A DNA stretch of 64,000 nucleotides from an uncultured bacterium (GTDB lineage: Bacteria > JAGOEH01), in the NCBI GenBank assembly GCA_964632485.1, contig CAZWDO010000016.1:1-64000 (forward strand). The letters are read 5' to 3'. Position numbers and translations under genes: made by a program. The notes below the pieces were generated by a model. The model was not told where the DNA came from. It saw only the letters and a program-made list of their open reading frames with translations, and did no database searches. Every line of letters begins with the position of its first letter. Position 1 is the first letter of the stretch. Positions 5,442-40,471 of this stretch are shown here, piece by piece.

Positions 5442-6454
5442 TATTCTTCCTTTACCTTGTATTGATAGCGCTCATAGACTCCTTCGATTCCCTGAATAAC
5501 CCGGATTGATCGTAGGGAATCGTTCTCGATCCGAAGTTCGATTTCATTGCCAGTTAATCGGTTGAATCCCCGTTCCTTTTTTTCAGCGTTCCAGGCGCTG
5601 TAATCCGCTGCGGCATTTTGAAAAATGCCGATACGTCTGGGTTTGTTATCTTTCAAGTGAAATACGATTTTTTTCCCCGAAAAAATAGTAGAGGATGAGT
5701 CTGCTTTTAGGGTATCTTCATGAATAAATCGGCCTTTGGCATAGGGTAACACCCATAAACTGTCAATTTTTTGTTTGGTATAAAAAATTTCAGCTCCGTC
5801 GCCATTCAACCGGCTTTTTTGAAATATAAATTCGGTTGGCTTCGAACAGACGATATGAGCGGCTTTTTTATACCACTGCGCTTCGTTTGTATGAATTAAT
5901 ATTTCTTTTTTTTGAATCTCAATATTATTCCACAAAAGTACTGAATCAAACCGACCGAAAACCAGCGCTGAATCCGCTTTAATTTGATACTCTTCATAAT
6001 CGATTTTTAAATCTCCGTAGAACCAGGTCTGATTGGTCAGATGGTGATGGATGGCTCGCTTCCCCTGTACAACCAACTTAAGGGCTGTATCTTTAAAAAT
6101 AAAAAAGGGAGTAAAGATAAACACTTCACGGTCAAGATGAATGATGAGAGAATCGCTGTAAATATCGCGATGGCGGTCAGTAAGATGCACCCGCTGCGTC
6201 AACTGCGCTATTTTACGCAATTCGTTTTGATATCCCATGCGAGCGGTCGCAACCAGTGTATCCATTGCGATTTGCACGCTATCACTCCATCTTGTAACGA
6301 GTTCATCATCAGAAATTCTTTCGACACTTAGTCTTCCGGCATATTGAAGCCGGATTTCACGAGTTTCATTGGCTATTTGACCTAAGGCAGAATAAACAGA
6401 AAGAAACATAAAATAGAGGAATGTAGCGATAGTAAGTTTAATTTTTATTGACAT
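5441..6454 (-). CDS. LptA/OstA-like beta-jellyroll protein (exported)
   Basis: signal-like N-terminus from MSIKIK; repeated 'I.ADS' beta-taco motifs; coupled to lptB; start could be 6493. Confidence 0.65.
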   Translation of the reverse strand: MSIKIKLTIATFLYFMFLSVYSALGQIANETREIRLQYAGRLSVERISDDELVTRWSDSVQIAMDTLVATARMGYQNELRKIAQLTQRVHLTDRHRDIYSDSLIIHLDREVFIFTPFFIFKDTALKLVVQGKRAIHHHLTNQTWFYGDLKIDYEEYQIKADSALVFGRFDSVLLWNNIEIQKKEILIHTNEAQWYKKAAHIVCSKPTEFIFQKSRLNGDGAEIFYTKQKIDSLWVLPYAKGRFIHEDTLKADSSSTIFSGKKIVFHLKDNKPRRIGIFQNAAADYSAWNAEKKERGFNRLTGNEIELRIENDSLRSIRVIQGIEGVYERYQYKVKEE

Positions 6455-9081: not shown

Positions 9082-9153
9082 TGGGATGTAGCCAAGCGGT
9101 AAGGCAGCGGGTTTTGGTCCCGCCACCCGGGGGTTCGAATCCTCCCATCCCAG
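9082..9153 (+). tRNA. tRNA-Gln (anticodon TTG), CCA not encoded
   Basis: acceptor TGGGATG/CATCCCA, D-arm GCCAAGCGGTAAGGC, anticodon arm GCGGG-TT-TTG-GT-CCCGC, T-loop GTTCGAATCC. Confidence 0.95.
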
Positions 9154-23121: not shown

Positions 23122-23881
23122 GAGGTTCCGGAGAAATTTTAGGGCTCACTCCTTCTGACACAGCGCGGATTAACCAGCTTATCAGCAAAACGGCGAGCCA
23201 GTTTGTCGTTAAAGCGATTCGATTTCCGGGAATGAGATACATCCCACAAGCTATCTTGATATAGGAGACTTCAATGGACCGCGCAGTAAAATCTTCGAGA
23301 ATTCGTTATCGTTTGTCTTGAAAAATTTGCATAACTTGGCTGCGGATGAGATTCAGGCGTTTTATCAGCGGTTTCGAATCTTTTTCGGCGATGAGATCAT
23401 GGGCAGAACGAAATTGATCCGGGATTATTCCATCCGTCGATAAGTCACGAACGATCTTTCTTTCCAGCCATAATTTGAACCATAATGCCGACATTTAAAT
23501 TTTTTTCTATATATTGAATAACACTTATTAAACTGTACTGGTCATTCATCAGTTTTTTTGATTCCCGATTTGGAAACAAAAGGAATTTTAATTGAGAAGA
23601 AAAATAGAGAAGTCAGAATCCATACGGCAGCTTCATGTTCAGTGCAAGTGCCGTGTTATTCATACTATAGAATTCATTTATGCTTTTTATATGGATAGTG
23701 GGCAGGCTGAATGATGATTCCGAAAGGAGAATATATCGGTTATCGATACTGAGGTTCATGTCAGGCCCATCTCTTAAATCAGCTGTTTAATGATGCTAAG
23801 TGCAGTATCAGGATTATTTTGTAAAACAAGCTTAATAGTGAATTGTATAGGCAATGATGTTTTAATAATGGAGCTGGTAGA

Positions 23882-24280
23882 ATGAAAAAGCAAATTGAAG
23901 AAATTATTCAAAAAAATTTTACTGATCCGAATTTTAATGTTACAGTACTGTATGAAAAAATTGGATATTGTGAATCCCGATCATTTGAAATGATTTATAA
24001 GTATTTCGGCATGAATGCTCAGCAATTAATCGAATCATTCCGCTTGCATCAGGCGCTAAATATGTTGGCAGAAGGGAATTTGGTTCACAAAATATATGGA
24101 AAGGTCGGGTATGCTAATGTCCGAACATTCCGTTTCGCATTTAAAAAGCGTTTTAAACTGAGTTGCTGCAAGTGCCGGGAGAAGCTGTTGGGTTGTGATT
24201 GTTCAATAATTGAACTTGAACAGTTTTATTCAACATTATGGATGAGAGAGCAAAACGAGACTATAAAAAATTCAGAGTAA
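23882..24280 (+). CDS. AraC-family HTH protein (DNA-binding domain only) with Cys-rich tail
   Basis: NFTDPNFNV, RLHQALNML, KVGYANVRTFRFAFKKRF; tail CCKC...CDC; GGAG RBS. Confidence 0.8.
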   Translation: MKKQIEEIIQKNFTDPNFNVTVLYEKIGYCESRSFEMIYKYFGMNAQQLIESFRLHQALNMLAEGNLVHKIYGKVGYANVRTFRFAFKKRFKLSCCKCREKLLGCDCSIIELEQFYSTLWMREQNETIKNSE

Positions 24281-24410
24281 AGGTTAATTTCAGATTTTAT
24301 TCAGGATAAAAGTTTTAAAGTGGACGTGTTAGGGGGGGTGTCAGCCCCACTGAAATATTAAAATATAGAGTATATTAATGAATTAATTTATAATAATGAA
24401 TAGGTAATAA

Positions 24411-24683
24411 TATAACCGGCGATTATAACCGGCGATTAGTTCCGGCGATTATAACCGGCGATTAGTTCCGGCGATTAGTTCCGGCGATTAGTTCCGGCGA
24501 TTAGTTCCGGCGATTNNNNNNNNNNNNNNNNNNNNNNNNNNNNNNNNNNNNNNNNNNNNNNNNNNNNNNNNNNNNNNNNNNNNNNNNNNNNNNNNNNNNN
24601 NNNNNNNNNNNNNNNATTAGTTCCGGCGATTAGTTCCGGCGATTAGTTCCGGCGATTAGTTCCGGCGATTAGTTCCGGCGATT
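24411..24683. repeat. 13-bp tandem repeat array (CCGGCGATT-AGTT / CCGGCGATT-ATAA) spanning a scaffold gap
   Basis: 8 CCGGCGATT cores before the N-run; 5 full plus 1 partial after it. Confidence 0.95.
24516..24615. other. assembly gap (100 N)
   Basis: run of N inside the tandem repeat. Confidence 1.
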
Positions 24684-24788
24684 TTGGTACTTGACAATTT
24701 TTTATTTTTTTTTATTTTTTATTAGATTAATTATTTTAGTTTTAAAACTTACTGGAATTTAATCAAATATTAGAGAAAGGAATTGTTC

Positions 24789-25939
24789 ATGAAACGTAGG
24801 CGTTCAAATTCTGATCTAACATTGTTAAAACGAAAAAATTCATTGTTAAATTCTTTGTATTTTTGGTATATAGAGCGTTGACGAGGGACAGGATTTAGTA
24901 TGAGTTGGATACTTTGGGATGGAATCCATCTATTTCGGCGGATCAACGGAACGAAGCTGAAGCGTATGATAGCGTTTTTGTTCTTATTCAGTCTGGCCGG
25001 ATCTATTTGCGCGTTATTTTATTCTTCTGGACGTATTGAAACCCATCGAAAAATTTCTACAATCTGTAAAGATAAAATCGGCAGAAAATTTATTTCTTTC
25101 TGTTTGCCACAAGTCAATTATAACATTTTGGGAAATAGTGAGATATGCCTGCCGGATTATCAAAATCATACACGTACGGCACTGATTGTTTACTATAATT
25201 TTTGTCCTTCATGTCGCATTTTGCTTCAAAATCTCGATAAAATCAACCGGATTGATACGTTGGTCAATACTCGCATTATCGCTTATTCATGGGGGAATTC
25301 CCAAGACGGCATTCATATCGATGATACCGCCACCTATCGCAGTACCATGGAATTGATTGATGAATACAATTTTTCTTTTCCTTTTGTTTTAAATCGACAA
25401 GATGTTTTTGAATCTGTTAAACGCATGTTCCCCCGCTTTCCGAAACCGGCAGTTTTTTTCTGGATAGTGAACTATCGATTCTTTACGTTTTCAGCGGATT
25501 GGGTAACTTTGAAGAAGTACGACGTCTGATTAAGGAATTCGATGCAAATGGTGAAATCACATCTATTGGACGTAATATACTTCCTGATACAGTGCGCCAT
25601 GAATCCATTAATCAGCAAATAGGCGCAGCGGATTGCTATCTGTTTTTACAAAAGACACGGAATTTAATTTTGCTGGATTCAGCGGTTTCGGAATTCATGA
25701 ATGAATATCTCTTCGATACAAGTTTCTGGTATGAAGATTTGAACTTATGTAAAGAGTCTGGTCAAATTCAATTGCGATATTCGGTTATCGGCAAAACCTG
25801 CGATTGTCCCGAAAAGTCAGGCAAATATAATAGTTTTACGATTACCCGCAATCTGGATTCATTGAAAATTTTTGAGAAAAAATTTATCATAGGGGAATCG
25901 AAAAACGTATGTATTCGCGCGGCGAAGGGAGAAGAGTGA
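24789..25939 (+). pseudogene. membrane-anchored thioredoxin-like (CPSC) protein, interrupted by an in-frame TGA (24879) and a -1 frameshift (T7 run, 25453-25459); pseudogene, recoded gene or assembly error
   Basis: ATG 24789 with AAAGGA RBS is in frame with ORF 24900; YNFCPSCR motif; a -1 shift gives PAVFFLDSELSILYVFSG and joins ORF 25499..25939. Confidence 0.6.
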
Positions 25940-26499
25940 TTATACGCCTATTGAAGCAAACTTTAGAAGTAAGGATTGCCGTATTTCTTTTCTTATTCAT
26001 TTTCTTAGCGATTCCCTTTGGTGTGTTAGCTGGGATATCTCATTTGTTAATCAGACCGGACCTAAATAAAAAAATATATGCCTGGTGGCATGGCGCTCAA
26101 TTCACTGGAACTGAAGGAGTGATCCTGCAGGATAAATTTAATAATTGTGGACCAGCGGCCATGAAAATGGTATTAATGCAGTTCGGAATAAAAACCTCCT
26201 TGGCCGATATTGAACGTCTTGCAGGAACGGATGCTCGGGGTACATCGATGCTGGGATTGAAACAGATGGCGGAAAGTTGTGGATTACGAGCGGAAGGCTG
26301 GCGGTTTGTTTGGGAAGATTTTCGAAAAATCGACTTGCCGGCCATTCTTTTTGTCAATGGTGATCATTATGTGACGGCACTCGAGTTTATTGGTAAGGAT
26401 ACGTTAATTTTAGCCGATCCCGCGATCGGAAAACTTAAGATATGTCAGCGAAACCTGAAGAAAATCTGGAAAGGGGAAACGCTGGTTTTGAGTAAATAG
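25936..26499 (+). CDS. stand-alone membrane-anchored peptidase C39 (double-glycine leader peptidase)
   Basis: LQDKFNNCGPAAMKM, GTSMLGL, DHYV, LADPAIG, W.G..L; N-terminal TM; GTGA overlap with the upstream stop. Confidence 0.9.
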   Translation: MIIRLLKQTLEVRIAVFLFLFIFLAIPFGVLAGISHLLIRPDLNKKIYAWWHGAQFTGTEGVILQDKFNNCGPAAMKMVLMQFGIKTSLADIERLAGTDARGTSMLGLKQMAESCGLRAEGWRFVWEDFRKIDLPAILFVNGDHYVTALEFIGKDTLILADPAIGKLKICQRNLKKIWKGETLVLSK

Positions 26500-26628
26500 C
26501 GCTTTTGGACGGCCGTCCCGGTGATCAGGCCTTGAGCCGCGGCAAATCATCGGTTTTTTAGATACGTTGTGTGTTGATTGCGTACGCTAAAATATGTCAA
26601 CTTTAATGAATGATTGGAGTAAAAACTC

Positions 26629-26919
26629 ATGTTCAAGAAAACCATCGTAATGATCGTTGTCTGCGCACTATTGTTTATGTGTATTCAAGTAAGCGCTCAA
26701 CCGATAATTAAAACTACTCATCTTTCAATTGAAAGCATGCAAATTAATTATGGCGGTCTCTCTTTTTCATGTATCCTAATGCTTTCAGGTTATGCCGCTG
26801 CTTGGGGTACTGCAATTACTGCAACAGCTCTTTCGGCTGGAGCAGCAGCTTGGACAATTCTTGGTCTTTATGCTGCTTCTGCAGGTATTGGTATAATGTT
26901 TCAGGAATGCTTCGGTTAA
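26629..26919 (+). CDS. putative bacteriocin/RiPP precursor: Sec signal, double-glycine leader, 53-aa hydrophobic core with two Cys
   Basis: MFKK plus hydrophobic h-region and VSA|Q; LSIESMQINYGG|; core LSFSC...AAAWG...ECFG; GGAG RBS; followed by a terminator; adjacent to C39. Confidence 0.75.
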   Translation: MFKKTIVMIVVCALLFMCIQVSAQPIIKTTHLSIESMQINYGGLSFSCILMLSGYAAAWGTAITATALSAGAAAWTILGLYAASAGIGIMFQECFG

Positions 26920-26931
26920 TTAATTAAATCA

Positions 26932-26962
26932 AAAAGGAAGGTATATTACATACCTTCCTTTT
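26932..26962 (+). terminator. Rho-independent terminator/stabilising hairpin after the precursor
   Basis: AAAAGGAAGGTAT-attac-ATACCTTCCTTTT, perfect 13-bp stem. Confidence 0.85.
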
Positions 26963-26988
26963 ATTAAGCCCCAAATGAAAGCAATAAT

Positions 26989-27738
26989 ATGAAACTAAAA
27001 TTGATGCATATTTTTGAGATTAATAAAAAACTATCAAAGAGAATAAATAAAGGTGTTCCATATCCGATTACTATAGGTCTATTTTCAATTTTGATAGCAA
27101 TGTTTACAATGCTAATAAATAATGAAATTTTAAATAATAGCATTTTGAGTAAAAAATCAAGTTTTATTGCATTGATAACTGTATTGATGTGTTTGGTGTT
27201 TTTGTTCAGTGTACTACCATTAATTATCAAAATTGACCATAAAATGTTCTATTCAACAAAACCATTGAATATTTTTCCGATATCTGCCCGGAAAATCTAT
27301 CATTTACAAATCATTAGCATTTTAATGGATTTTCGACTGGTTTTGTATTGCTCATCTTTTATTCTTTCAACAATTTTTTTCTTTTTAGGGGTTTCGTATA
27401 AAGTGGGTGTGATTTCCGGACTAATTTTTATCCTAACAAGTATGACTTATGAAACCCTCATAAGCAATTTAAGTATTTTGCTGATCAATTTTCCAAAATT
27501 TTCTGTGAGGAATTTGTTGTTTATTCCAATTTTTTCCCCGATATTAATAAAACTGCTAAAATTGAAAGAGGATTTTTTTATCCACATTCCATTATTTTCA
27601 TGGCCTGGGTGGGCCATTTATCATTTTCATCATGGAGACTATTTGAATTCTTTTCTCTATGTTTTCTTTTTGATACTGTTAAGTGTTGCCGTCTACATCT
27701 CCGGTTATTATCTTACACAACACCTGGCCAGGGATTAG
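26989..27738 (+). CDS. multi-pass membrane protein, probable ABC-2-type permease/immunity
   Basis: about 6 TMs; 'IFPISARKI' motif; very AT-rich. Confidence 0.65.
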   Translation: MKLKLMHIFEINKKLSKRINKGVPYPITIGLFSILIAMFTMLINNEILNNSILSKKSSFIALITVLMCLVFLFSVLPLIIKIDHKMFYSTKPLNIFPISARKIYHLQIISILMDFRLVLYCSSFILSTIFFFLGVSYKVGVISGLIFILTSMTYETLISNLSILLINFPKFSVRNLLFIPIFSPILIKLLKLKEDFFIHIPLFSWPGWAIYHFHHGDYLNSFLYVFFLILLSVAVYISGYYLTQHLARD

Positions 27739-27765
27739 TAAATCGATATCTGAAGCGGGATTTAA

Positions 27766-28458
27766 ATGAAACTAAGTAGCAACTGTTGTCAAAAAACGTT
27801 CTGGGTTTTGATCCAAAATGACATGAAACTGCTAACAATATACCACAAAATCCACTATATCCTCCTGTCGGCCATAGTTATGGTGCTTCTGATCGGAAAG
27901 TTTGTCAATCGTCATTTGCCATTCTATAATTATCAATCGGCGATCTGGATTGCCTTGCTCAGTTTTGAACCCTTCATCAACAACATGCTGGCAAGATTTC
28001 CTCGTGAGTGCGCTTCTTATCGAATTTTCCCTATTCCGACCAACTCCTTGTTGTTGGCCAAATTATCCCTTAATCTGATCACCATCTTTACTGCGCTAAT
28101 TGGGATATTTATCATGTTGGCAGTATTTTTGAAAATCAATACTCTCGAATTGACAGCGCTCATTCAGATATACTTGCCCGCTATGGTTTTGATTCAGGCC
28201 ATCGGGGTCGTACGTTCCATTCAGGCCCAAAGTGGAAAGAACAAACGCGTGGCCATAATCTCATTTTTTAATGTCTTTTGGATGTCGTTGATCATATTGG
28301 TGATAAATCTATTGGTCGATTTCTTCCATCGGATTGCTTATCGCTGGATTTGGTATTGGTTTATCGTTGTTATTATTTTTTTGATCAGTTATTATCTGTT
28401 ACGATTTGCATTGGGATTATTCAATAAAAACCAGTTTTCCATCCTGGAGGATGAATGA
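27766..28458 (+). CDS. multi-pass membrane protein, probable ABC-2-type permease/immunity
   Basis: about 6 TMs; 'YRIFPI...LLLAK' motif; ATGA overlap with the ATPase. Confidence 0.65.
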   Translation: MKLSSNCCQKTFWVLIQNDMKLLTIYHKIHYILLSAIVMVLLIGKFVNRHLPFYNYQSAIWIALLSFEPFINNMLARFPRECASYRIFPIPTNSLLLAKLSLNLITIFTALIGIFIMLAVFLKINTLELTALIQIYLPAMVLIQAIGVVRSIQAQSGKNKRVAIISFFNVFWMSLIILVINLLVDFFHRIAYRWIWYWFIVVIIFLISYYLLRFALGLFNKNQFSILEDE

Positions 28459-29231
28459 AAAGCATCGAAATCAAAAACTTCAGCAAGGTATATAAAAAGT
28501 CAATCAAAGCAGTTGATAATTTGAGTTTGAATATCCCGAGAGGGTGCTTTTTCGGATTGTTAGGGTTGAACGGCGCCGGAAAAACTACAACTGTCAACTT
28601 TATTGCCGGGTTAATTCGGAGGAGCTCAGGAGAACTTTATATTCAGGGAGAAGCAATTACCGACTCCAGCTATATGTATAAGGCTAAAATGGGTTTTGTT
28701 TTGGACCGTCCGCTATATATCGAAAAATTTACCGTTAAAGAATATCTAAGTTTCGCTGGTCAGATGTATGGTTTGGATTCCTCTGCCACGGAACGTCGAA
28801 GTGAAGAGTTACTTGAATTTATGGAACTTGGTGAAAAACGCAATGAATTGATTGAAACTTATTCAGCGGGAATGAAAAAGAAAGTCTCACTTAGCGCGGC
28901 TTTGATCCACAATCCAGAGATATTGATTCTTGATGAGCCGTTTGAGGGAATTGATCCCGTATCATCGAAAAAAATACGGGAAGTGCTTTTGGATTTGGTG
29001 AAAAAAGGGAAAACGATTGTGCTAACCTCTCATATTTTGGAAATCGTCGAAAAATTGTGTAATGAAGTAGCTATTATGAACAAAGGAAAATTGATCTTCC
29101 AGGATCGGATTGAAAACATACAAACTTATATCAAGGAAGGAAACGAACAAACATATTATCAAGGATTGGAAGAACTCTTTCATCATCTTGTCGGTCAAAA
29201 TGATCTTCCGTCCACATTGTCATGGATGTGA
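28455..29231 (+). CDS. ABC transporter ATP-binding protein
   Basis: GLNGAGKTT, YSAGMKKK, ILDEPFEGIDP, TSH. Confidence 0.92.
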   Translation: MKSIEIKNFSKVYKKSIKAVDNLSLNIPRGCFFGLLGLNGAGKTTTVNFIAGLIRRSSGELYIQGEAITDSSYMYKAKMGFVLDRPLYIEKFTVKEYLSFAGQMYGLDSSATERRSEELLEFMELGEKRNELIETYSAGMKKKVSLSAALIHNPEILILDEPFEGIDPVSSKKIREVLLDLVKKGKTIVLTSHILEIVEKLCNEVAIMNKGKLIFQDRIENIQTYIKEGNEQTYYQGLEELFHHLVGQNDLPSTLSWM

Positions 29232-29309
29232 ATTTGAAGGATTATATTGTCAGGAATAACCTGTTTTTTTGGCGTAATTAAGTTTTAGCAACACTCCAAG
29301 GAGGATTGT

Positions 29310-29675
29310 GTGAAAAAAACGTTGTTGATCATTGTCCTGGTCGTTATCGTCATAATTCTTGCCCTCGTCGCGATCTGCTATACCCAGAAAGACAAACTGG
29401 TTCAGATAGGTATGGAAAAAGCTATGCAGTCTGTTGAATCAGTGATCGTAAAGAACCTGCCCTCATCTATTGAAGAGGATAGTGCCAAAACCATTGTCCG
29501 CGAATTTTTTGCCAACACACAGGCGCAAAAAATACCTCCTGCGGCACTGCAAGCCGTTATGACTCAGTTTCAAACCAGTTTTGCGGATCAGAAACTGGAT
29601 TCTGCTGAAGTGACCGATATTCTGAGTCGCATGAAAGCGGCCAGTCACCCTAAAGCGGAGGATGCTCAACAATGA
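29310..29675 (+). CDS. small membrane-anchored hypothetical protein
   Basis: AAGGAGG RBS, GTG start, single N-terminal TM, helical body. Confidence 0.7.
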   Translation: MKKTLLIIVLVVIVIILALVAICYTQKDKLVQIGMEKAMQSVESVIVKNLPSSIEEDSAKTIVREFFANTQAQKIPPAALQAVMTQFQTSFADQKLDSAEVTDILSRMKAASHPKAEDAQQ

Positions 29676-30349
29676 ATACGATTAAACTATTAATTGATCC
29701 CCAAAACGTATGTCTCGATATTAAGCAGAACCCTCGCTGGATTCAGGCATTTATCTTAATCAGCGTACTGGGCATTCTATCGGGCGCTCTAACTCTGCCC
29801 TTCAGTATGCAATTGGCGGCGGCTAAAATGGGAGTCATCCCTGCGGGTCAGATGGAACGAGTTAAGGATATGAGCCAAATGTTCGGATATGTCGGTTTGG
29901 TTTTTGTTCCGATCGCTCTATTGATTAAATGGGCTGTCATGGGATTTTTTCTGTATTTGCTGGGTATTCTTTTTCGGAGTGAAATGAAATTTAAATCTCT
30001 TTTTTCATTGCTTGCCCATGCCAATATCATCCTGATCGTTTCATCCCTGGTTAATATTCTGATTTTATTCATCAAAGGGCCTGAATCGATTCAGCATCCC
30101 CTGGATTTAAATGTGATCGGATTGCATATTCTTTTTGATTTCGAAAGCATGAATCATTCGCTATATTATTTTTTCTCTTTGATCAATGTTTTCGAAATCT
30201 GGTATTTGGTTGTTCTGTTCATGGGTCTGGAATTGATATTTGATTTGGATCGGGCAAAATCAGCGGCAATCATTGGCGTGTATTGGCTAATTTCCATCTC
30301 AGCCATGACGGGCTTCGCTTCTTTCTCGGAAAAATTTCAACAATTTTAA
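29672..30349 (+). CDS. Yip1-domain membrane protein (YknW/As-48E-like)
   Basis: 'LIDPQ...IKQNPRW' start, about 5 TMs, 'NVFEIWY..L..GL' Yip1 motif. Confidence 0.8.
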   Translation: MNTIKLLIDPQNVCLDIKQNPRWIQAFILISVLGILSGALTLPFSMQLAAAKMGVIPAGQMERVKDMSQMFGYVGLVFVPIALLIKWAVMGFFLYLLGILFRSEMKFKSLFSLLAHANIILIVSSLVNILILFIKGPESIQHPLDLNVIGLHILFDFESMNHSLYYFFSLINVFEIWYLVVLFMGLELIFDLDRAKSAAIIGVYWLISISAMTGFASFSEKFQQF

Positions 30350-30366
30350 CGGTATGTAATAACAGG

Positions 30367-31551
30367 ATGATAAAACGTATACTTATTGCCATTTCGGTTT
30401 TAATAGGAATTGGATTGATTATTATTGGTAATTTGCGTCAACGAAAACATTATTTGACGGTGGATGTGGAACCGGTTGAAAAAGGCAGAATCACCCGTAC
30501 CGTGGCTGTTTATGGTAAAATATTGCCGCGGACAATGGCTAAAATTTCTTCCGATCTCAATGGCAGAATCGAAGATATCACCGTAAAAGAAGGGGATACG
30601 GTAAAAAAAGGCGAACTTTTGGCTCAAATCAACAAGGAATGGCATATCGCCTCACTGGATAAAGCCCAATCCAATTTGAAATCCGCAGAGCTGGAGCTGG
30701 AAATTGCTCAACTACAAAAAGAACAATCGGAACGAACTGTTAAACGCTTGCATGAATTGGTATCCAACCAGTTTGAAGCGAAACTCAAACTGGAGGATGC
30801 GGCCAGCGACTATGAAATTAAGCAGATTCAGCATCGCTCGGCCATTGAGCGTAATAACCAGGCGCGGGCCGCGTTGCGCCAGGCCCGTAACGATCTGCTT
30901 AAAACTGAGATTTTCGCTCCCTTCAATGGTACTGTGATTCAAATTAATAAGGAAATCGGAGAAATGACTACTGGCTCTCAGTTTCAGGAAGATGTGATTA
31001 TGATTCTGGCTGATACTGATACCATGGAATTAATCGCTAAAATCGATGAAAATGATGTAGTTCTGACTCATGTGGGAGACACGGCCAAAATTTTTCTGGA
31101 CGCGTTTCCCGATTCCATTTATTGGGGCTTTGTTGACCATATTCGCAATTTTTCTTCTTCTCCCCGACTGGGAGTAAATGAAGGATCCTCTGATTTTGAA
31201 GCGAAAATCGTACTCACCACCAAACCTGCTGATATCCGGCCGAATATGACTGCCTATGCCGAAATTTTAGCAGAAACGCATGGCCATGCCATTGTTATTC
31301 CGATTCAATGTGTGACCACACGTGAAGGTACGGAGAAGAAGAAGGAATCAGTGGTTTTCGTTGCAATTGGTGATTCGGCTGTCCAAAAACCAGTTAAAAT
31401 GGGACTAAATAGCGATACTCATTATGAAATTCTTCAGGGACTTGATGTTGGCGAACATGTGATCACTGGCGATTATGAGGCCATCCATACAAGGTTGAAA
31501 CAGGGCATGTTGATCAAGGTGAAGCCAACCGAAATGGAGAAAACGCTATGA
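30367..31551 (+). CDS. efflux RND/ABC periplasmic adaptor (membrane fusion protein, MacA/YknX-like)
   Basis: N-terminal TM; GRIEDITVKEGDTVKKGELL and IFAPFNGTV lipoyl halves, coiled coil, IRPNMTA. Confidence 0.9.
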   Translation: MIKRILIAISVLIGIGLIIIGNLRQRKHYLTVDVEPVEKGRITRTVAVYGKILPRTMAKISSDLNGRIEDITVKEGDTVKKGELLAQINKEWHIASLDKAQSNLKSAELELEIAQLQKEQSERTVKRLHELVSNQFEAKLKLEDAASDYEIKQIQHRSAIERNNQARAALRQARNDLLKTEIFAPFNGTVIQINKEIGEMTTGSQFQEDVIMILADTDTMELIAKIDENDVVLTHVGDTAKIFLDAFPDSIYWGFVDHIRNFSSSPRLGVNEGSSDFEAKIVLTTKPADIRPNMTAYAEILAETHGHAIVIPIQCVTTREGTEKKKESVVFVAIGDSAVQKPVKMGLNSDTHYEILQGLDVGEHVITGDYEAIHTRLKQGMLIKVKPTEMEKTL

Positions 31552-32237
31552 GTTTGATCAGTATGCGCAATATTTCTCGCACGTTTCAGATGAAAACCGT
31601 TAGTATCGACGCATTACGGAATATCTCGCTAAACGTCGGAAAAGGCGAGTATGTCAGTATTATGGGTCCGTCCGGTTCGGGGAAATCGACGTTGATGAAT
31701 CTGCTGGGGTGTCTTGATCGGCCCTCTTCCGGCGAGTATTTTCTTGGAGAACGCAACGTCCATCAATTTAATAAACTTGAATTAGCCCGCATACGCAACC
31801 GGGAGATCGGTTTTATCTTTCAAACCTTTCAATTGCTTCCCCGGGCAAATGCGAGGCAAAATGTTGAGCTTCCTCTGATCTATGCCGGAATTTCGGCCCG
31901 GGAGCGGAGAGATCGGGTTTCCCGCGCCCTGGTACGGGTGGGCTTAAGCGATCGGATGTTGCATAAACCAGGAGAACTCTCCGGGGGACAATGCCAGCGG
32001 GTGGCAATCGCCCGCGCGATTGTTAATCAACCCTCAATCATTTTGGCCGATGAACCGACCGGTAATCTAGATTCTGCCACCGGCAGGGAGATTTTGGATA
32101 TTTTCCGTGAGTTGCACCATGAGGGTCATACTATCATTATGATTACCCACGATGAAACCGTGGCCGATGAAACGATCCACCGGATTAAAATTAAAGATGG
32201 AAGAATTGTCGAAGATACTCATGAGACTTCTGCCTGA
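31548..32237 (+). CDS. MacB/LolD-type ABC ATP-binding protein (YknY-like)
   Basis: GPSGSGKST, IGFIFQTFQLL, LSGGQCQRVAIARA, LADEPTGNLD. Confidence 0.93.
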   Translation: MSLISMRNISRTFQMKTVSIDALRNISLNVGKGEYVSIMGPSGSGKSTLMNLLGCLDRPSSGEYFLGERNVHQFNKLELARIRNREIGFIFQTFQLLPRANARQNVELPLIYAGISARERRDRVSRALVRVGLSDRMLHKPGELSGGQCQRVAIARAIVNQPSIILADEPTGNLDSATGREILDIFRELHHEGHTIIMITHDETVADETIHRIKIKDGRIVEDTHETSA

Positions 32238-33435
32238 ATACGTTATAATTGCTATCCATGCTTTTATGGAATATAAAACTCAGTTTTTATTGTCTATGAT
32301 CGGTATTATTATTGGTATCTTTACAATCAGTACGATGGTTGCTATCATCAATGGACTCAATCGGGCATTCGATCAACAGATTTCTTCCCTTGGCGCTCAA
32401 TCGTTATATGTCTCCAAATTTCCATGGTTGATGACAGAAGAACCCTGGGCCTATCAAAAGCGAAAAAATATCACCTGGCGACAGTTTCAACAACTCAAAA
32501 ATAGATTATTGGGAACGTTTATTCTCATACCGCAATTGACTGTGAATTTGCCACTAACCAGGGGACGTGAAAAAATGAAATCGGTTCGGGTGATCGCGAC
32601 GGATGAGAATTATTTTCAGGGTTCCTCGTCCGGGAAAATCCGGCAGGGACGTTCGATCATTAAGACGGACCGCGAAACTAATAAAGCCGTAACCGTGATC
32701 GGAACGGAAATCGCGGATAAATTGTTTCCTTCCTGTAATCCCCTCGGAGAAAGAATCTCAGTGGACGGTCGTGTTTATAAAATAATTGGGATTATGGAAA
32801 AACAGGGGACATTTTTTGGTCAAAACAATGATCAGGCAATTGTAGTTCCCATTACTACTGTGTTAAAACAGGTTGGCCCCCATCAATCTCTGGATATTCA
32901 AGTAACATATCCGGCAAATTGTCCATTCGAGCAAGCCGAACGTGAAATTACCACGATGATGCGTCGGGTTCGTGGGCTAAAACCTAACGTGCGGGAAGAT
33001 TTTGCCATTAATCGGCAAGATATGCTTAAACATGCCTATCAATCGCTAACCGGTTCGATATATGCCGCGGGAATCCTGATCGCTTTGATTTCCATCATGG
33101 TTGGCGGCATTAATATTATGAATACTATTCTGATGTCCGTGAAACAACGAACCCGGGAAATCGGTATCCGTAAAGCTTTCGGTGCTACGGAAGGCGGAAT
33201 CATTTTGCAATTTGTGATCGAATCCGTTTTAATTTGTATCTGCGGGGGAGTGATCGGTATTGGAGCTTCTCGTTGTTTCGAGTATTGGCTTGAAAGTCAG
33301 TTGCCGGTTCAATTCACAGTATTCAACCTATTGCTAAGTGTAGGATGTTCGGCGCTTGTTGGTTTATTTTTTGGTATTTTCCCTGCATTCCAGGCAGCCA
33401 AATGCGATCCGGTCGAATCCCTGCGCTATGAATAA
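32221..33435 (+). CDS. MacB/FtsX-type ABC permease (YknZ-like)
   Basis: LSMIGIIIGI, VGGINIMN..LMSV.QRTREIGIRKAFGA, GIFPA..AA..DPVESLRYE. Confidence 0.92.
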   Translation: MRLLPEYVIIAIHAFMEYKTQFLLSMIGIIIGIFTISTMVAIINGLNRAFDQQISSLGAQSLYVSKFPWLMTEEPWAYQKRKNITWRQFQQLKNRLLGTFILIPQLTVNLPLTRGREKMKSVRVIATDENYFQGSSSGKIRQGRSIIKTDRETNKAVTVIGTEIADKLFPSCNPLGERISVDGRVYKIIGIMEKQGTFFGQNNDQAIVVPITTVLKQVGPHQSLDIQVTYPANCPFEQAEREITTMMRRVRGLKPNVREDFAINRQDMLKHAYQSLTGSIYAAGILIALISIMVGGINIMNTILMSVKQRTREIGIRKAFGATEGGIILQFVIESVLICICGGVIGIGASRCFEYWLESQLPVQFTVFNLLLSVGCSALVGLFFGIFPAFQAAKCDPVESLRYE

Positions 33436-33450
33436 TCGGAGAATCGATAG

Positions 33451-34665
33451 ATGTTGATTGAGATGATCTATATCGCCTTTCAAAATATTATGGCTCATAA
33501 ACTGCGATCATTCTTGACTCTCTTGGGGATTATCATTGGCATTTCGACTATTATTTCCATCCGAATCGTGATGGGCAGCATCGAATACATCATGAAAGAC
33601 AGTTTTAAATTATTTGGAGCCAATATGTTTCAGATATTTAATCAGAGCATTGTTCATGCCGGACATGAGGAAGAACTCAAACGGCCGAATATTACCTGGC
33701 GGGAAGGACAGCAATTAAACAATAGAATTGATAATGCCGATTATGTCAGTACTGAATTAACCCGCGGCCAAATTTCCGTCATTTATAAAAGCAAATCCAC
33801 ACCACCGAACGTAATGGTCTTGGGTGGAACCCCGGAGTCAGCTCCCAACAATCATTACACAATTCAAACCGGCCGATTTATCAATGAACATGATATCCGC
33901 TTCAATCTTAATCATGCTGTTATCGGCCGAAGGGTCAGCGACCTGCTGTTTGATGAGGGTAACGGTTTAGGCGAATCCATTCGCATCGGACGGGTTCGCT
34001 TTAAGGTCATCGGTATTTTGAGTTCGATGGGCAATAGTCTAGGCATCAATCTGGATAATCTGGTGGTAATTCCAATTTCTACTTATATTCAAACCTTTGG
34101 TAAAAATGAATCGGCAGTGATCAAGGTTCAGGTATCAGAAGAATATGCGACGGCATCTGTGATTGACAAAGCGCGGCTATTGTTGCGCATACTCCGTTGC
34201 CTGCGCCCCGCTCAAGACGATAATTTTGAAATATTTTCCAGTGATTTTATTCAAAAATTACTGGATAATTTGATCAGAAAAATGAATATAGCCGCAATCG
34301 GTATCAGTTCAATTGCCTTTTTGATTGCGGGGATCGGTATTATGAATGTCATGTTTATTTCCATTCTGGAACGCAGAAATGAAATCGGCATCCGCAACGC
34401 TTTCGGAGCAAGTATGATGCATATTTTATTGCAATTTTCCGCTGAAGCGGTAATATTAACGCAATTGGGAGCTGTTGTTGGTATTTTTATCGGCATTGTG
34501 TTTGGAGTGTTTGTCCAGATCATGATTTTTCGCATTCCGTTAACTCTGCCTTACCTGTGGATCGGCTTTAGTCTGGGGGTCTGCACTATTTTGGGATTGC
34601 TGTTCGGATTATGGCCTGCGCTGAGGGCCGCTCGGCTTGATCCTATAGAAGCTCTGAGGAAATAG
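33451..34665 (+). CDS. MacB/FtsX-type ABC permease (second paralogue)
   Basis: KLRSFLTLLGIIIGI, GIGIMNVM..SILERRNEIGIR, WPALRAARLDPIEALR. Confidence 0.92.
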   Translation: MLIEMIYIAFQNIMAHKLRSFLTLLGIIIGISTIISIRIVMGSIEYIMKDSFKLFGANMFQIFNQSIVHAGHEEELKRPNITWREGQQLNNRIDNADYVSTELTRGQISVIYKSKSTPPNVMVLGGTPESAPNNHYTIQTGRFINEHDIRFNLNHAVIGRRVSDLLFDEGNGLGESIRIGRVRFKVIGILSSMGNSLGINLDNLVVIPISTYIQTFGKNESAVIKVQVSEEYATASVIDKARLLLRILRCLRPAQDDNFEIFSSDFIQKLLDNLIRKMNIAAIGISSIAFLIAGIGIMNVMFISILERRNEIGIRNAFGASMMHILLQFSAEAVILTQLGAVVGIFIGIVFGVFVQIMIFRIPLTLPYLWIGFSLGVCTILGLLFGLWPALRAARLDPIEALRK

Positions 34666-34670
34666 TGATA

Positions 34671-37034
34671 ATGACTGCTAACCGCTCCCGGATCGATTTC
34701 TGGCAAGCTTTTTTAATTATTTTCACTTTATTGGCCGGTATTTTTATTTTGCCGGAAACATTACCTTTTTTATTCGGGGTTAATTTTTATTTGATGGCGC
34801 AACAAATCCGCCGGGAGCATCTCTCTTTATTTTCCAATAGTTTCTATTGGCTATTCATATTGTTGATTGCTTTGGCAATGACCAATCTGCGCTCCAGCAT
34901 TTATTTCAATAATAGTGTCGAGTTCATTCAGAAATTGTTCTATTTGTTATTGTATATCAACTTGATTCGATTAGTATCTCTTTCAGATGATGCTAAACGA
35001 ATGATCGCTTATATTGTCACTATCTTGGGTGTTCTTTTGGCTCTCTTTACAATTGCTGTTTTAGCAATATTCTATATGATGATTTGGATGCAAGGCTTTG
35101 TTCGGGTTCTTGATTTCCGTTTTATGATCAATCCGTTTGGGATTCCTCTAAATGAATGGACCACGCAATTCATCCTTTTTTTTCCGTTTTCAGCAATCGC
35201 AATCTATCGGTGCCGAGAAGATAAATCGTTCCGATTTTGTTTTTTTTGTGGTGGGATTTTGCTAATCCTTCCCATGGTTTTATCTTTTTCCCGGGGAATC
35301 TATCTTGCGTTGGGCTTTATGATGATTGCCATTTCACTATTCGTCATTAAATTCAAATTAATTCCATGGAAAAAAGTAGCTTTGACCGCCCTGGTGTTTT
35401 CAGTGATTTCAATTGCCGCCATTTTACCGGCACGGTTATCTTTTGTATCCACTTTGCATGGCAATAAGACCATTTCTCAGCAGCGCAGCAGAGAGGGCAG
35501 GATAAAATTATGGAAAAAAGCATTGACTATTCCCGGAGAGCGCTTGCTGACCGGTGTGGGCGCCTATAATTTCAGTATGAGATATGTTTCAGAGAAAGAC
35601 CGAACGGAAGATACAGCGTTTACCAGTCAATCGGCAAACTTATTCGTGTTGGTATTTGTTGAACATGGGGTTGCGGGTTTGCTGATTTTTATTGCTTTGT
35701 TCGCTTTGGGAATAATGGGATTTATATCCCGCCTAAAGCGTCCTAAAGTTGAAAAAATTGAACTGATTTTTTTCTCTTGCTCCATAGCCGCTCTAATATT
35801 ACGGGAAATGACTTTTTCTTCCCTTATGAATAATAATCTGATGATTTTGCTGTGTGGGTTAATAATCGGTTTATTATCCTATCCAATTCAAGGTTATTTA
35901 CAAATAAAAAAATTGGATTATCTGATTTTGATCTTGTTGTCCCTTGCATTTGGATTTATCTATTGGCATACTTTTAAAATAGAGAAAGCAAAAAAACATC
36001 ATTGTGATTGTATAGCGAGTTATCATGCCGGCCAATGGGCGGAAGCGCAAAAAAGCTTGCGAAAAGCAATCGAATGGAATCCGCAGCAGGCGCTTTATTA
36101 TAGTGATATGGCGCTGATGAGTTATCAGTTACTGGACACTTGCCCATACTTTGACAAGTCGGCGTTATTTATTGACAGGGGAGATATGGATTGTTACCGT
36201 TATCTGGATATCATCCAATTTTATCAATCGGCATTGCAATTCAATCCTGCGGACGATGGATATCATTTCAATCTGGGTTGGATTTATTGGTTGATGGGAG
36301 ATGACGAACAGGCGCTGATTCATTTCAATGAAGCAATCCGGATTGAACCAAATTTTGCGATTTACCATATCGGACTGGGGCTTCTCCATGAAAAACTGAA
36401 GCATCCCATATCGGCTGTTAGCGAATATCTGAACGCTATCCGCCTATCACCGGATATATTAGATTCCCCTTTTTATCAGGGATTGAGTGCTTCGTATCGA
36501 ATTTCCATCGAGAATTCAATCGGAAACTTGATTGCCGAATTGGAACAGAAAGGCGATAGTCCGATCTATCATGGGCGGCTGGCTAAATTATATCTATATC
36601 AAGGACGGTTGAATGAAGCTGAATCGCTATTAGTACGGCTTACGACCCAAGTTCCCAATCTTTCCCGTCCATGGCTTTGGTTGGGGATAGTCCATCGACA
36701 AAGGCGCCAGTTTGGAGCAATGATCCGTTGTTGTCAAAAATCGGCCTTTGTCAATTCCCATGATTATTTACCGTGTTGGGTGATGGGCCAGTACTATGCA
36801 TCGGTCGATGACGAGCAGGATGCTGATTATTGTTTTCTCCAGGTCAGGAAAAAAATTAAGGAACAGTATTCTGAACATTATTTTCGAGCTCAATATATCT
36901 ATCGTATGGCTGGGATTAAAAAAGACTGGATTCCAAATGGATTGTATGAATACATCAGTCCGATGATGGCAGATGTAACTCAGAAATATCCCGATGAGAT
37001 GAAGGATAATTCTCTGGGAGAAATGATTCAATGA
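34671..37034 (+). CDS. O-antigen ligase (Wzy_C)-family membrane protein with C-terminal TPR repeats
   Basis: about 12 TMs; LSFSRG, R..LW......LTGVG..NF, SAN.F..V.VE.G..G; several TPR units (e.g. YHFNLGWIYWLMGD.EQA..HFNEAIRIEP). Confidence 0.8.
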   Translation: MTANRSRIDFWQAFLIIFTLLAGIFILPETLPFLFGVNFYLMAQQIRREHLSLFSNSFYWLFILLIALAMTNLRSSIYFNNSVEFIQKLFYLLLYINLIRLVSLSDDAKRMIAYIVTILGVLLALFTIAVLAIFYMMIWMQGFVRVLDFRFMINPFGIPLNEWTTQFILFFPFSAIAIYRCREDKSFRFCFFCGGILLILPMVLSFSRGIYLALGFMMIAISLFVIKFKLIPWKKVALTALVFSVISIAAILPARLSFVSTLHGNKTISQQRSREGRIKLWKKALTIPGERLLTGVGAYNFSMRYVSEKDRTEDTAFTSQSANLFVLVFVEHGVAGLLIFIALFALGIMGFISRLKRPKVEKIELIFFSCSIAALILREMTFSSLMNNNLMILLCGLIIGLLSYPIQGYLQIKKLDYLILILLSLAFGFIYWHTFKIEKAKKHHCDCIASYHAGQWAEAQKSLRKAIEWNPQQALYYSDMALMSYQLLDTCPYFDKSALFIDRGDMDCYRYLDIIQFYQSALQFNPADDGYHFNLGWIYWLMGDDEQALIHFNEAIRIEPNFAIYHIGLGLLHEKLKHPISAVSEYLNAIRLSPDILDSPFYQGLSASYRISIENSIGNLIAELEQKGDSPIYHGRLAKLYLYQGRLNEAESLLVRLTTQVPNLSRPWLWLGIVHRQRRQFGAMIRCCQKSAFVNSHDYLPCWVMGQYYASVDDEQDADYCFLQVRKKIKEQYSEHYFRAQYIYRMAGIKKDWIPNGLYEYISPMMADVTQKYPDEMKDNSLGEMIQ

Positions 37035-40398: not shown

Positions 40399-40471
40399 TG
40401 AGGGTAGAAGGATTCGAACCTTCGACCAACAGCTTAAAAGGCTGCTGCTCTACCGTCTGAGCTATACCCCC
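40399..40471 (-). tRNA. tRNA-Lys (anticodon TTT), CCA not encoded
   Basis: GGGGGTATAGCTCAGACGGTAGAGCAGCAGCCTTTTAAGCTGTTGGTCGAAGGTTCGAATCCTTCTACCCTCA; upstream TTGACT-N17-TATATT at 40486-40514. Confidence 0.95.

Follow-up and report, generated by a model that had tools for sequence, protein, structure and literature searches.

Predicted Sec signal and double-glycine leader within one precursor peptide encoded beside a stand-alone C39 peptidase

Introduction

Class II double-glycine (GG) bacteriocins and class IIa microcins, represented by the Blp/lactacin F family (PF10439), MccV, MccL and the bacteroidetocins, are exported by PCATs. In the described microcins, the PCAT cuts the precursor, and export then proceeds directly from the cytoplasm (PMC12219008). 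Mining tools and reviews, in their accessible parts, treat GG leaders as tags that are read by PCATs in the cytoplasm and Sec leaders as the alternative to them; the two are likewise alternative types in IIBacFinder (bioRxiv 10.1101/2024.07.15.603639). SdpC, the toxin precursor of the Bacillus subtilis SDP system, combines a signal peptide, a pro-region and a hydrophobic C-terminal toxin and is processed in two steps (PMC6818787). The E. coli peptide STII is exported by Sec, acquires its disulfide in the periplasm through DsbA and is ejected by MacAB-TolC (PMC5985334). That an active periplasmic C39 peptidase can exist is known from FapD, which acts outside the cytoplasm on Sec substrates and whose target is left unclear (PMC5557850). 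Furthermore, Yip1 proteins occur in bacteriocin clusters (PMC11580447), and YknWXYZ and As-48EFGH protect against peptide toxins (PMC5985334).

The gene cluster described here was found in a window of 64,000 nucleotides, the whole stretch of DNA that was analysed, from an uncultured bacterium. It has in common with the class II bacteriocins and microcins a GG leader with hydrophobic residues at positions -12 and -7, a C39 peptidase, an unmodified hydrophobic Gly/Ala-rich core with possible disulfides and, in three genomes, a sister form with a PCAT. Unlike in those systems, a Sec-type signal stands ahead of the GG leader, the window cluster contains no PCAT, and the C39 peptidase lacks the ABC part and is anchored by its own transmembrane (TM) helix. 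The cores are mostly neutral or anionic, unlike those of typical cationic bacteriocins.

An earlier note on this DNA had compared the locus with SdpC and FapD. These comparisons hold as analogies only; the closer kin is the canonical GG-leader/PCAT system, which has the same core and accessory genes. The likeness to the SDP toxin and YknWXYZ lies in the succession of signal, pro-region and hydrophobic C-terminal part and in the Yip1/YknW protein and adaptor/MacB module beside the window gene. However, SdpC is a protein of 203 residues that needs SdpAB and for which neither a GG leader nor a C39 is described in the accessible part of PMC6818787. The host here, whose genome carries Omp85 and TolC-like genes, is diderm, unlike B. 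subtilis, and Pfam and NCBIfam gave no SdpA/SdpB- or SdpI-like match among the window proteins scanned. With FapD of the Pseudomonas Fap amyloid system, the peptidase shares its stand-alone form and a predicted action outside the cytoplasm on Sec substrates, but it scores 38.7 bits with the C39_FapD model against a cut-off of 330, carries a TM anchor and has a canonical GG-leader candidate substrate encoded next door; neither amyloid repeats nor a FapF-like or barrel gene were found among the adjacent window genes scanned. STII offers an analogy of route only, a MacAB-like module being present in 2 of 29 clusters. Finally, AS-48-type circular/leaderless bacteriocin clusters also combine Yip1 with ABC immunity modules, whereas SpoIIM/DUF95 is nearly always not found in our clusters, and their precursors have a terminal Cys pair and two leaders.

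Results

The precursor peptide and its parts

The open reading frame (ORF) at positions 26629 to 26919 is genuine and encodes a peptide of 96 residues; a GGAG sits 8 nt 5' of its ATG (26629). Its parts and the element that follows it are:

26629 to 26919, plus strand: whole precursor ORF, 96 aa
26629 to 26697, plus strand: predicted signal peptide, residues 1-23
26698 to 26757, plus strand: pro-segment with GG leader, residues 24-43
26758 to 26916, plus strand: core, residues 44-96, with Cys48 and Cys94
26932 to 26962, no strand assigned: 13-bp stem-loop directly 3' of the precursor stop

Residues 5-23 are the sole segment of the precursor with a mean hydropathy above 1.6 (2.53); MFKK precedes this stretch and V21-S22-A23|Q24 follows it, an n/h/c signal pattern that we recognised from hydropathy and by eye. 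The window precursor has no lipobox, and 92 of 92 family sequences checked are without one; a -3/-1 signal check was passed by 92 of 92 as well, by a criterion too loose to be informative. Residues 32-43 read LSIESMQINYGG and fit the consensus LSxxELxxIxGG at five of seven positions (L at -12, S at -11, M at -7, G at -2 and -1). Ser at -8 and Asn at -4 depart from it, Ile standing at -5 instead, so the fit claimed in the earlier note is a partial one. Thirty-one residues, including the signal-like segment, stand ahead of this leader.

The core of 53 residues contains 13 Ala, 7 Gly, 1 Gln and no Asn, has a net charge of -1 and a GRAVY of 1.22; with 2 Trp, its former description as Ala/Gly/Trp-rich overstated the last of these. 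In an AF2 model of the precursor (mean pLDDT 73, pTM 0.38), a signal helix (3-22) and a short leader helix (34-40) precede a hairpin of two helices (46-68/73-95), at whose open end Cys48 and Cys94 are placed. Of the disulfide-clamped helical hairpin proposed before, the model supports the hairpin; indirect support for the disulfide comes from a CxxC oxidoreductase encoded in the cluster.

A direct search with the precursor (62 candidates) returned only itself, Pfam and NCBIfam held no family for it, and Foldseek gave no match to its model; VIA-align found generic hairpins only (best Z 7.0, rmsd 2.8, 56 aligned). Sequence matches in the PDB proved to be signal peptides of constructs and revealed no family. 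The PF10439 and microcin profiles did not match the window (PF17508 reached E 0.064 in 1 of 29 members), and no convincing Pfam/NCBIfam bacteriocin family match was obtained for two-leader precursors. The nearest Atlas clusters were Blp/lactacin F class II bacteriocins at 0.81-0.82, which serves as a lead only; a PF10439 search of 301 genomes yielded 5 weak loci, a number insufficient for comparing profiles. BLB8/JUQZ-1 (NF053514) was rejected as a relative: its best E was 0.013, in 9 of 29 members, where the family calls for a score over 40 bits, the genome was unmatched, and the family consists of a hydrophilic protein of about 116 aa, its published peptides being hydrophilic (PMC11747845).

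The stem-loop 3' of the precursor gene has a stability of -16.5 kcal/mol (z -5.99), a value reached by 0 of 200 shuffles, and is among the terminator-like sites on the minus strand; it is a candidate for a terminator-like or transcript-stabilising element.

The stand-alone C39 peptidase

25909 to 26499, plus strand: stand-alone C39 peptidase, 196 aa (PF03412, E 1.8e-28)

The peptidase has one N-terminal TM helix (23-41) and no ABC part. Residues C80, H153 and D170 are invariant in 19 of the 19 nearest C39 proteins, and Q74 is kept in at least 90%; among solved structures, PCAT protease domains come closest (6mpz, E 2.7e-23). By the positive-inside rule, the more positive side of a membrane anchor stays in the cytoplasm. 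Since the N side of the anchor is the more positive one in 14 of 17 C39s with a full N-terminus (3 of 17 lack a bias), the protease domain probably faces the periplasm. A modelled complex between the C39 domain and the pro-peptide scored 0.28 against a mark of 0.32 and is counted neither for nor against the proposed cleavage. The genome contains one other C39 match only, in an NHLP/radical SAM cluster on another contig. Read from translations, this separate NHLP-type cluster (L093, G000:C12:88000-100000) encodes a precursor with a Gly/Ser/Cys-rich core, a methyltransferase-radical SAM protein, an adaptor, a PCAT and a second ABC protein.

Oxidoreductase, pumps and accessory genes

23882 to 24280, plus strand: small AraC-type HTH protein (PF12833), upstream of the cluster
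24900 to 25939, plus strand: membrane-anchored TlpA/thioredoxin-like oxidoreductase with CPSC (homologues AhpC-TSA/Redoxin)
26989 to 27738, plus strand: ABC-2-type permease A (AF2/Foldseek; weak ABC-2 matches in relatives)
27766 to 28458, plus strand: ABC-2-type permease B (PF13346 in relatives)
28455 to 29231, plus strand: ABC ATPase of the ABC-2 pump (PF00005)
29310 to 29675, plus strand: 121-aa single-TM protein, unmatched in related loci
29672 to 30349, plus strand: Yip1/YknW-like membrane protein (PF04893 E 8.6e-16; YknW_fam E 4.5e-21, below cut-off)
30283 to 34665, plus strand: HlyD-type adaptor, ABC ATPase and two MacB/FtsX permeases (YknXYZ/As-48FGH/MacAB-like)

The conserved cluster consists of the CxxC thioredoxin, C39, the precursor, the ABC-2 pump and Yip1. 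The oxidoreductase, which an earlier reading of the locus had missed, is encoded directly 5' of C39 in 31 of 35 clusters by tblastn and also in the window, whose own divergent copy this search missed. Its commonest CxxC motif is CPHC, found in 18 of 52 loci with near-duplicates counted; CPHC is the motif of DsbA. In the window, a frameshift within a T run near 25452 breaks the gene into two ORFs, 24900-25529 and 25499-25939, both of which match halves of a 308-aa protein from a related locus, L043 (E 6e-7, 1e-6). Contigs from a second sample (runs X2 and X3) contain one extra T that restores the frame, and an X1 contig crosses the run without a gap; the run can also be read as a slippery T-TTT-TTC heptamer. 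The split can be a strain mutation, phase variation or an assembly slip, and, given the split gene in the assembly, the cluster of this strain may be impaired.

Permease A of the window is unmatched in Pfam. The top Foldseek matches to its AF2 model are, with few exceptions, type V ABC membrane domains (NosY, ABCG25, PmtCD, Wzm; E 0.11 or weaker). PF13346 was detected in 2 of 15 aligned relatives of permease B (best E 2.3e-6), the window protein itself being without a Pfam match, and a profile comparison of the two permeases was not significant (probability 2.7%). Their ABC ATPase is about 50% identical to its counterparts in many related loci. Among 29 clusters with at least 4 kb of downstream sequence, Yip1 was found in 21 by tblastn and in 26 when weaker BLAST matches are included, the ABC ATPase in 20, MauE in 4 and SpoIIM in 1 (the last three by tblastn, with one SpoIIM query). 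The adaptor/MacB module occurs in 2 of them and is accessory; one of the two, L019, has a TolC-like gene in addition.

No small immunity gene is conserved across the clusters. LanC, radical SAM, YcaO and glycosyltransferase proteins gave no match among the 16 window proteins scanned, and among 66 neighbours scanned a glycosyltransferase was found in L021 only. The AraC-type HTH protein possibly regulates the cluster; BLAST of the related loci for it was negative. Promoter-like sites were near chance (26 versus 20.9 +/- 4.9).

A family of two-leader precursors

Because the window precursor has neither a direct homologue nor a Pfam/NCBIfam family, relatives were sought through its neighbours. 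Scanning with a C39 alignment brought up 29 loci from genomes and 50 from metagenomes, from which 11 (L032-L036 and L081-L086; full PCATs, distant or partial matches) were dropped before counting; the 68 loci that remained, together with the window, fall into 47 clusters at 85% identity of C39. Bacteroidota, Ignavibacteria, Acidobacteriota and Latescibacterota are among the hosts named for these loci. In 38 of 39 clusters with at least 600 bases downstream, a precursor, scored by hand, lies 3' of C39; 36 are intact, and the two damaged ones carry a frameshift in the signal (L013) or lack the signal (L017). The two-leader architecture proposed in the earlier note is thereby borne out and conserved among homologues, as are the GG motif and the Cys pair.

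Sixty precursors were hand-picked through filters that selected for a hydrophobic tail or a signal-like start, so their signals are not an independent count. With Gly at -2 fixed by the site finder, which misplaced about six sites, position -12 is L/M/I/V in 51 of the 60, -7 is M/L in 45, -4 is I/V/T in 36 (Asn in the window) and -1 is G/A in 50; GE, GQ, GS or GD replaces GG in some relatives. The family thus keeps M/L or L/M/I/V at -7 and -12, two of the three hydrophobic leader positions (-4/-7/-12) needed by LahT (PMC10885120). The leader-like GG segment is more than chance in the family, because an ad hoc leader score of at least 5, the value of the window precursor, was reached by 38 of the 60 precursors versus 4 of 575 signal-bearing ORFs of the host genome. 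A clear c-region of the signal is missing in some relatives (L043-L045, beta-type).

By a script count that includes the approximately six misplaced sites, 53 of the 60 cores have at least two Cys and 52 an even number of them. The two Cys-free cores (L021 and L022) both stem from loci without TlpA but with a glycosyltransferase-TPR gene. In an alignment of 29 hairpin-type members, Cys48 is invariant (29/29), and Gly42, Gly71 and Cys94 are kept in at least 90%. A profile built from these members picked out 99 representatives (50% identity) from 1.84 billion sequences, P0077 being the nearest to the window (38-39%); Cys48 and Cys94 are invariant across 60 of the 99, in a set for which the profile favours both. 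The core sequences are hypervariable (mean column identity 17-23%), net charges range from -5 to +4 and are mostly neutral or anionic, and the C-terminal ends are ragged, some with polar tails of 20 residues.

Three kinds of core share the machinery: hairpin, short 4-Cys and Cys-rich beta-type. The latter two occur in loci that are mostly without the ABC-2 pump; in 4 of 29 clusters, short 4-Cys cores adjoin DUF5686/CarboxypepD_reg genes, and the Cys-rich beta-type ones lie next to a gene for a secreted protein of about 170 aa. Precursors of the short 4-Cys kind, which frequently have one more Cys in the leader, were seen in L012, L014, L025, L048, L115 and L119, together with DUF5686/CarboxypepD_reg genes and a secreted protein of about 170 aa without a Pfam family. 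Acidobacteriota loci carry two to three different precursors in tandem and thereby resemble two-peptide bacteriocin loci. In L026-L031, L078 and L079 of this phylum, a secreted ORF of about 100-120 aa with a Pro/Phe-rich, Cys-containing tail (e.g., L028:8645-8950) directly follows C39 and precedes the two to three different hairpin precursors; these ORFs were left out of the 60 precursors. In a Latescibacterota variant (L021:2964-10595 and L022), a Cys-free two-leader precursor is accompanied by genes for a transglutaminase-like protein, a glycosyltransferase-TPR protein, an Rce1-like protease and Yip1, and the thioredoxin is absent; its product is possibly a modified peptide. In P0057 (234 aa), an anchored C39 that is shortened at its C-terminus runs on into a precursor without a signal; the protein is either a natural deletion-fusion or an assembly chimera.

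Within the class of Ignavibacterium album, 22 of 401 genomes gave matches to the precursor profile, at 24 places; 17 of these places were retrieved, five already being among the known loci. The 12 new places comprise 8 complete two-leader precursors, with TlpA in 8 of 8 and a stand-alone C39 in 7 of 8, one orphan precursor with a decayed signal, and the three signal-less forms described below. In the host phylum, represented by three genomes, the system was not found in the 2 others searched.

A signal-less sister form with a PCAT

Three genomes of the Ignavibacteria class encode peptides of 54-65 aa with the GG leader only. These align with the window precursor at G42, C48, G71 and C94, and they are the only peptides in which the leader stands at the very N-terminus; one of them reaches PF10439 with E 0.0055, under the cut-off. 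Their clusters contain a full PCAT, Yip1, MauE and a thioredoxin, with ABC-2-type genes or an ABC ATPase nearby. The stretches read of these clusters (L112, L116 and L122-L124; G498, G450 and G474) contain no adaptor gene, which suggests that this PCAT delivers to the periplasm. We regard the sister form as the strongest link to the canonical class II systems; judged by gene content, one peptide family with one accessory set would be served by two export routes.

The stand-alone C39s are 30-33% identical to the sister-cluster PCATs and 27-32% to other PCATs. In one tree, from which four input rows were lost, they form one side of a branch against the PCATs (92/89), and in a second tree likewise (92). 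Descent of the stand-alone C39 from the sister-cluster PCAT was considered and is unsupported by the identities, and the second tree does not join the two. The swap of route may therefore have run either way, and the stand-alone C39 may have come from another source than the sister PCAT.

A structured RNA before the precursor gene in related loci

Between C39 and the precursor, many Bacteroidota and Ignavibacteria loci contain a structured RNA of about 104 nt with strong covariation (L009:5699-5804, L014:1250-1353 and 6217-6320, L063:825-926 and about 25 further loci), which ends about 35-70 nt, and up to about 120 nt, 5' of the precursor start codon. With a hand-drawn structure and 22 sequences, 87.7% of the cells are paired and 28 of 39 pairs have changes on both sides; 0 of 500 shuffles came up to this, and slid controls gave 34-47%. 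There are signs of a loop-to-junction pseudoknot, with three pairs counted, one of them with changes on both sides. The element is unmatched in Rfam. With a model built from it, two more copies were detected, in both cases ahead of a two-leader precursor, and none in the window or the host genome (150 of 881 candidates scored); the exact pattern had no match in viral contigs. Candidate roles are those of a stabiliser, a processing site or a switch. In L120:3628-4153, a copy of the element is followed by an ORF that reads as an insertion sequence, with no precursor.

Discussion

The sequences themselves establish the two-leader architecture, its conservation, the linkage of the genes and the existence of a signal-less PCAT sister form. 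As the probable explanation we favour a class II double-glycine bacteriocin- or microcin-like system whose export would have moved from a PCAT to Sec and whose precursor would be oxidised, and cut by C39, in the periplasm; the two-step processing alone can be put forward with considerable confidence. Residues 1-23 would carry the precursor through Sec, and signal peptidase would probably cut after Ala23, or the segment may remain as a tether. The anchored CxxC thioredoxin, in some loci together with MauE, would then form or shuffle the Cys48-Cys94 bond, which would clamp the hydrophobic helical hairpin. In a third step, the anchored, periplasm-facing C39 would bind leader helix 34-40 and cut after Gly42-Gly43; with this cut placed in the periplasm, the core would be freed only outside the cytoplasm. 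The weakest step is the subsequent one, in which the ABC-2 pump and Yip1 might lift the core from the inner membrane of the producer and thus provide release and immunity; in the window, the MacAB-like pump may push the core through a TolC encoded elsewhere. By analogy, the core might ultimately insert into the membranes of competitor bacteria. A candidate pump for passage of the outer membrane is present only in the window and L019; this passage is unexplained in most loci, because the adaptor/MacB module occurs in only 2 of 29 clusters. Further points that count against the favoured explanation are the mostly neutral or anionic cores, Asn at -4 in the window leader, the lack of a conserved small immunity gene and the split thioredoxin gene of this assembly.

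The same two-step processing might yield a product that is not a weapon but an envelope or surface component or a peptide pheromone, for instance a hydrophobin-, pilin- or Fap-like subunit or the partner of an outer-membrane barrel, which the ABC-2 pump and Yip1 would move out of the membrane for assembly. We consider this unlikely, even though the cores are neutral or anionic, the characterised periplasmic C39 that our literature searches found, FapD, serves an amyloid system, and one machinery handles unrelated cores (hairpin, 4-Cys, Cys-rich beta). The stem-loop after the gene here and the structured RNA before it elsewhere also hint at a high output. Hypervariable cores and a patchy distribution, however, are what is seen in competition genes, the core has no N/Q-rich amyloid repeat, no FapF-like partner was seen among the adjacent window genes scanned, and the sister form is a standard GG/PCAT locus.

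It is quite improbable that the GG segment is a vestige or spacer and that C39 acts in the cytoplasm or on another protein, leaving residues 24-96 as the mature product. The imperfect window leader (Ser at -8, Asn at -4), the substitutions of GG in some relatives, the unclear FapD target and a C39 topology deduced from charge bias only would be compatible with such a state; nevertheless, positions -12, -7 and -2 of the leader are conserved in several phyla despite the divergence of the core, C39 is catalytically intact and adjacent in 38 of 39 clusters, and a GG cut in the cytoplasm would strip off the signal peptide before export. A head-to-tail circular bacteriocin is extremely unlikely: Yip1 and AS-48-type pumps are known in circular bacteriocin clusters, an As-48EFGH-like module is present here, the core is hydrophobic and of 40-60 aa, and L043 has a SpoIIM/DUF95 gene, but SpoIIM occurs in 1 of 29 clusters and had no Pfam match among the 16 window proteins scanned, the C-terminal ends are ragged, the cores are not cationic, and the modelled two-helix hairpin (pTM 0.38) differs from the four-to-five-helix fold of that class.

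The rerouted class II-like system that we favour is likely new in its arrangement of two leaders and a stand-alone C39. In the open full texts that we searched, among them PMC10352776 and the accessible part of PMC8277102, the combination of Sec signal, GG leader and stand-alone C39 is undescribed; subscription papers lay outside this scope. The supplementary lists of IIBacFinder might contain family members under the GG label. If our explanation is true, about 100 distinct sequence clusters, mostly from uncultured diderm phyla, would represent an overlooked pool of disulfide-clamped peptides. It makes testable which substrates periplasmic C39 peptidases cut, puts on offer the small soluble GG proteases that a 2023 review hoped for as tools (PMC10885120), and provides, with the PCAT and Sec versions of one peptide family, a natural pair for studying swaps of the export route.

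A broader reading, plausible though somewhat short of probable in our view, sees here a general platform for the maturation of peptides in the periplasm, made up of a Sec signal on a GG leader, an anchored C39 that faces the periplasm, an oxidoreductase of its own and Yip1. Such a platform would be spread over Bacteroidota, Ignavibacteria, Acidobacteriota, Latescibacterota and candidate phyla. The unrelated disulfide-rich scaffolds that it matures would number at least three (hairpin, 4-Cys helical and Cys-rich beta), it would be interchangeable with PCAT export, and in many loci an undescribed pseudoknotted RNA ahead of the precursor would exert control. Were this so, unmodified bacteriocins would possess a third export logic that is missed by tools built on GG or Sec leaders, and periplasmic C39s would gain a defined substrate.

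Surroundings of the cluster and strain variation

Two tRNA genes, at 9082-9153 (plus strand) and 40399-40471 (minus strand), lie in the window, neither adjoining the cluster. Over 23500-30500, runs X2 and X3 reveal diverged strains in the second sample, with up to 150 differences in 2074 bases, and their joints omit parts of the C39-precursor region, hinting at strain-level variation; a loose X2 contig end did not map to the window. The cluster is followed, at 34665-37034, by an O-antigen-ligase-like and TPR protein gene, similar to one in L017 and L050.
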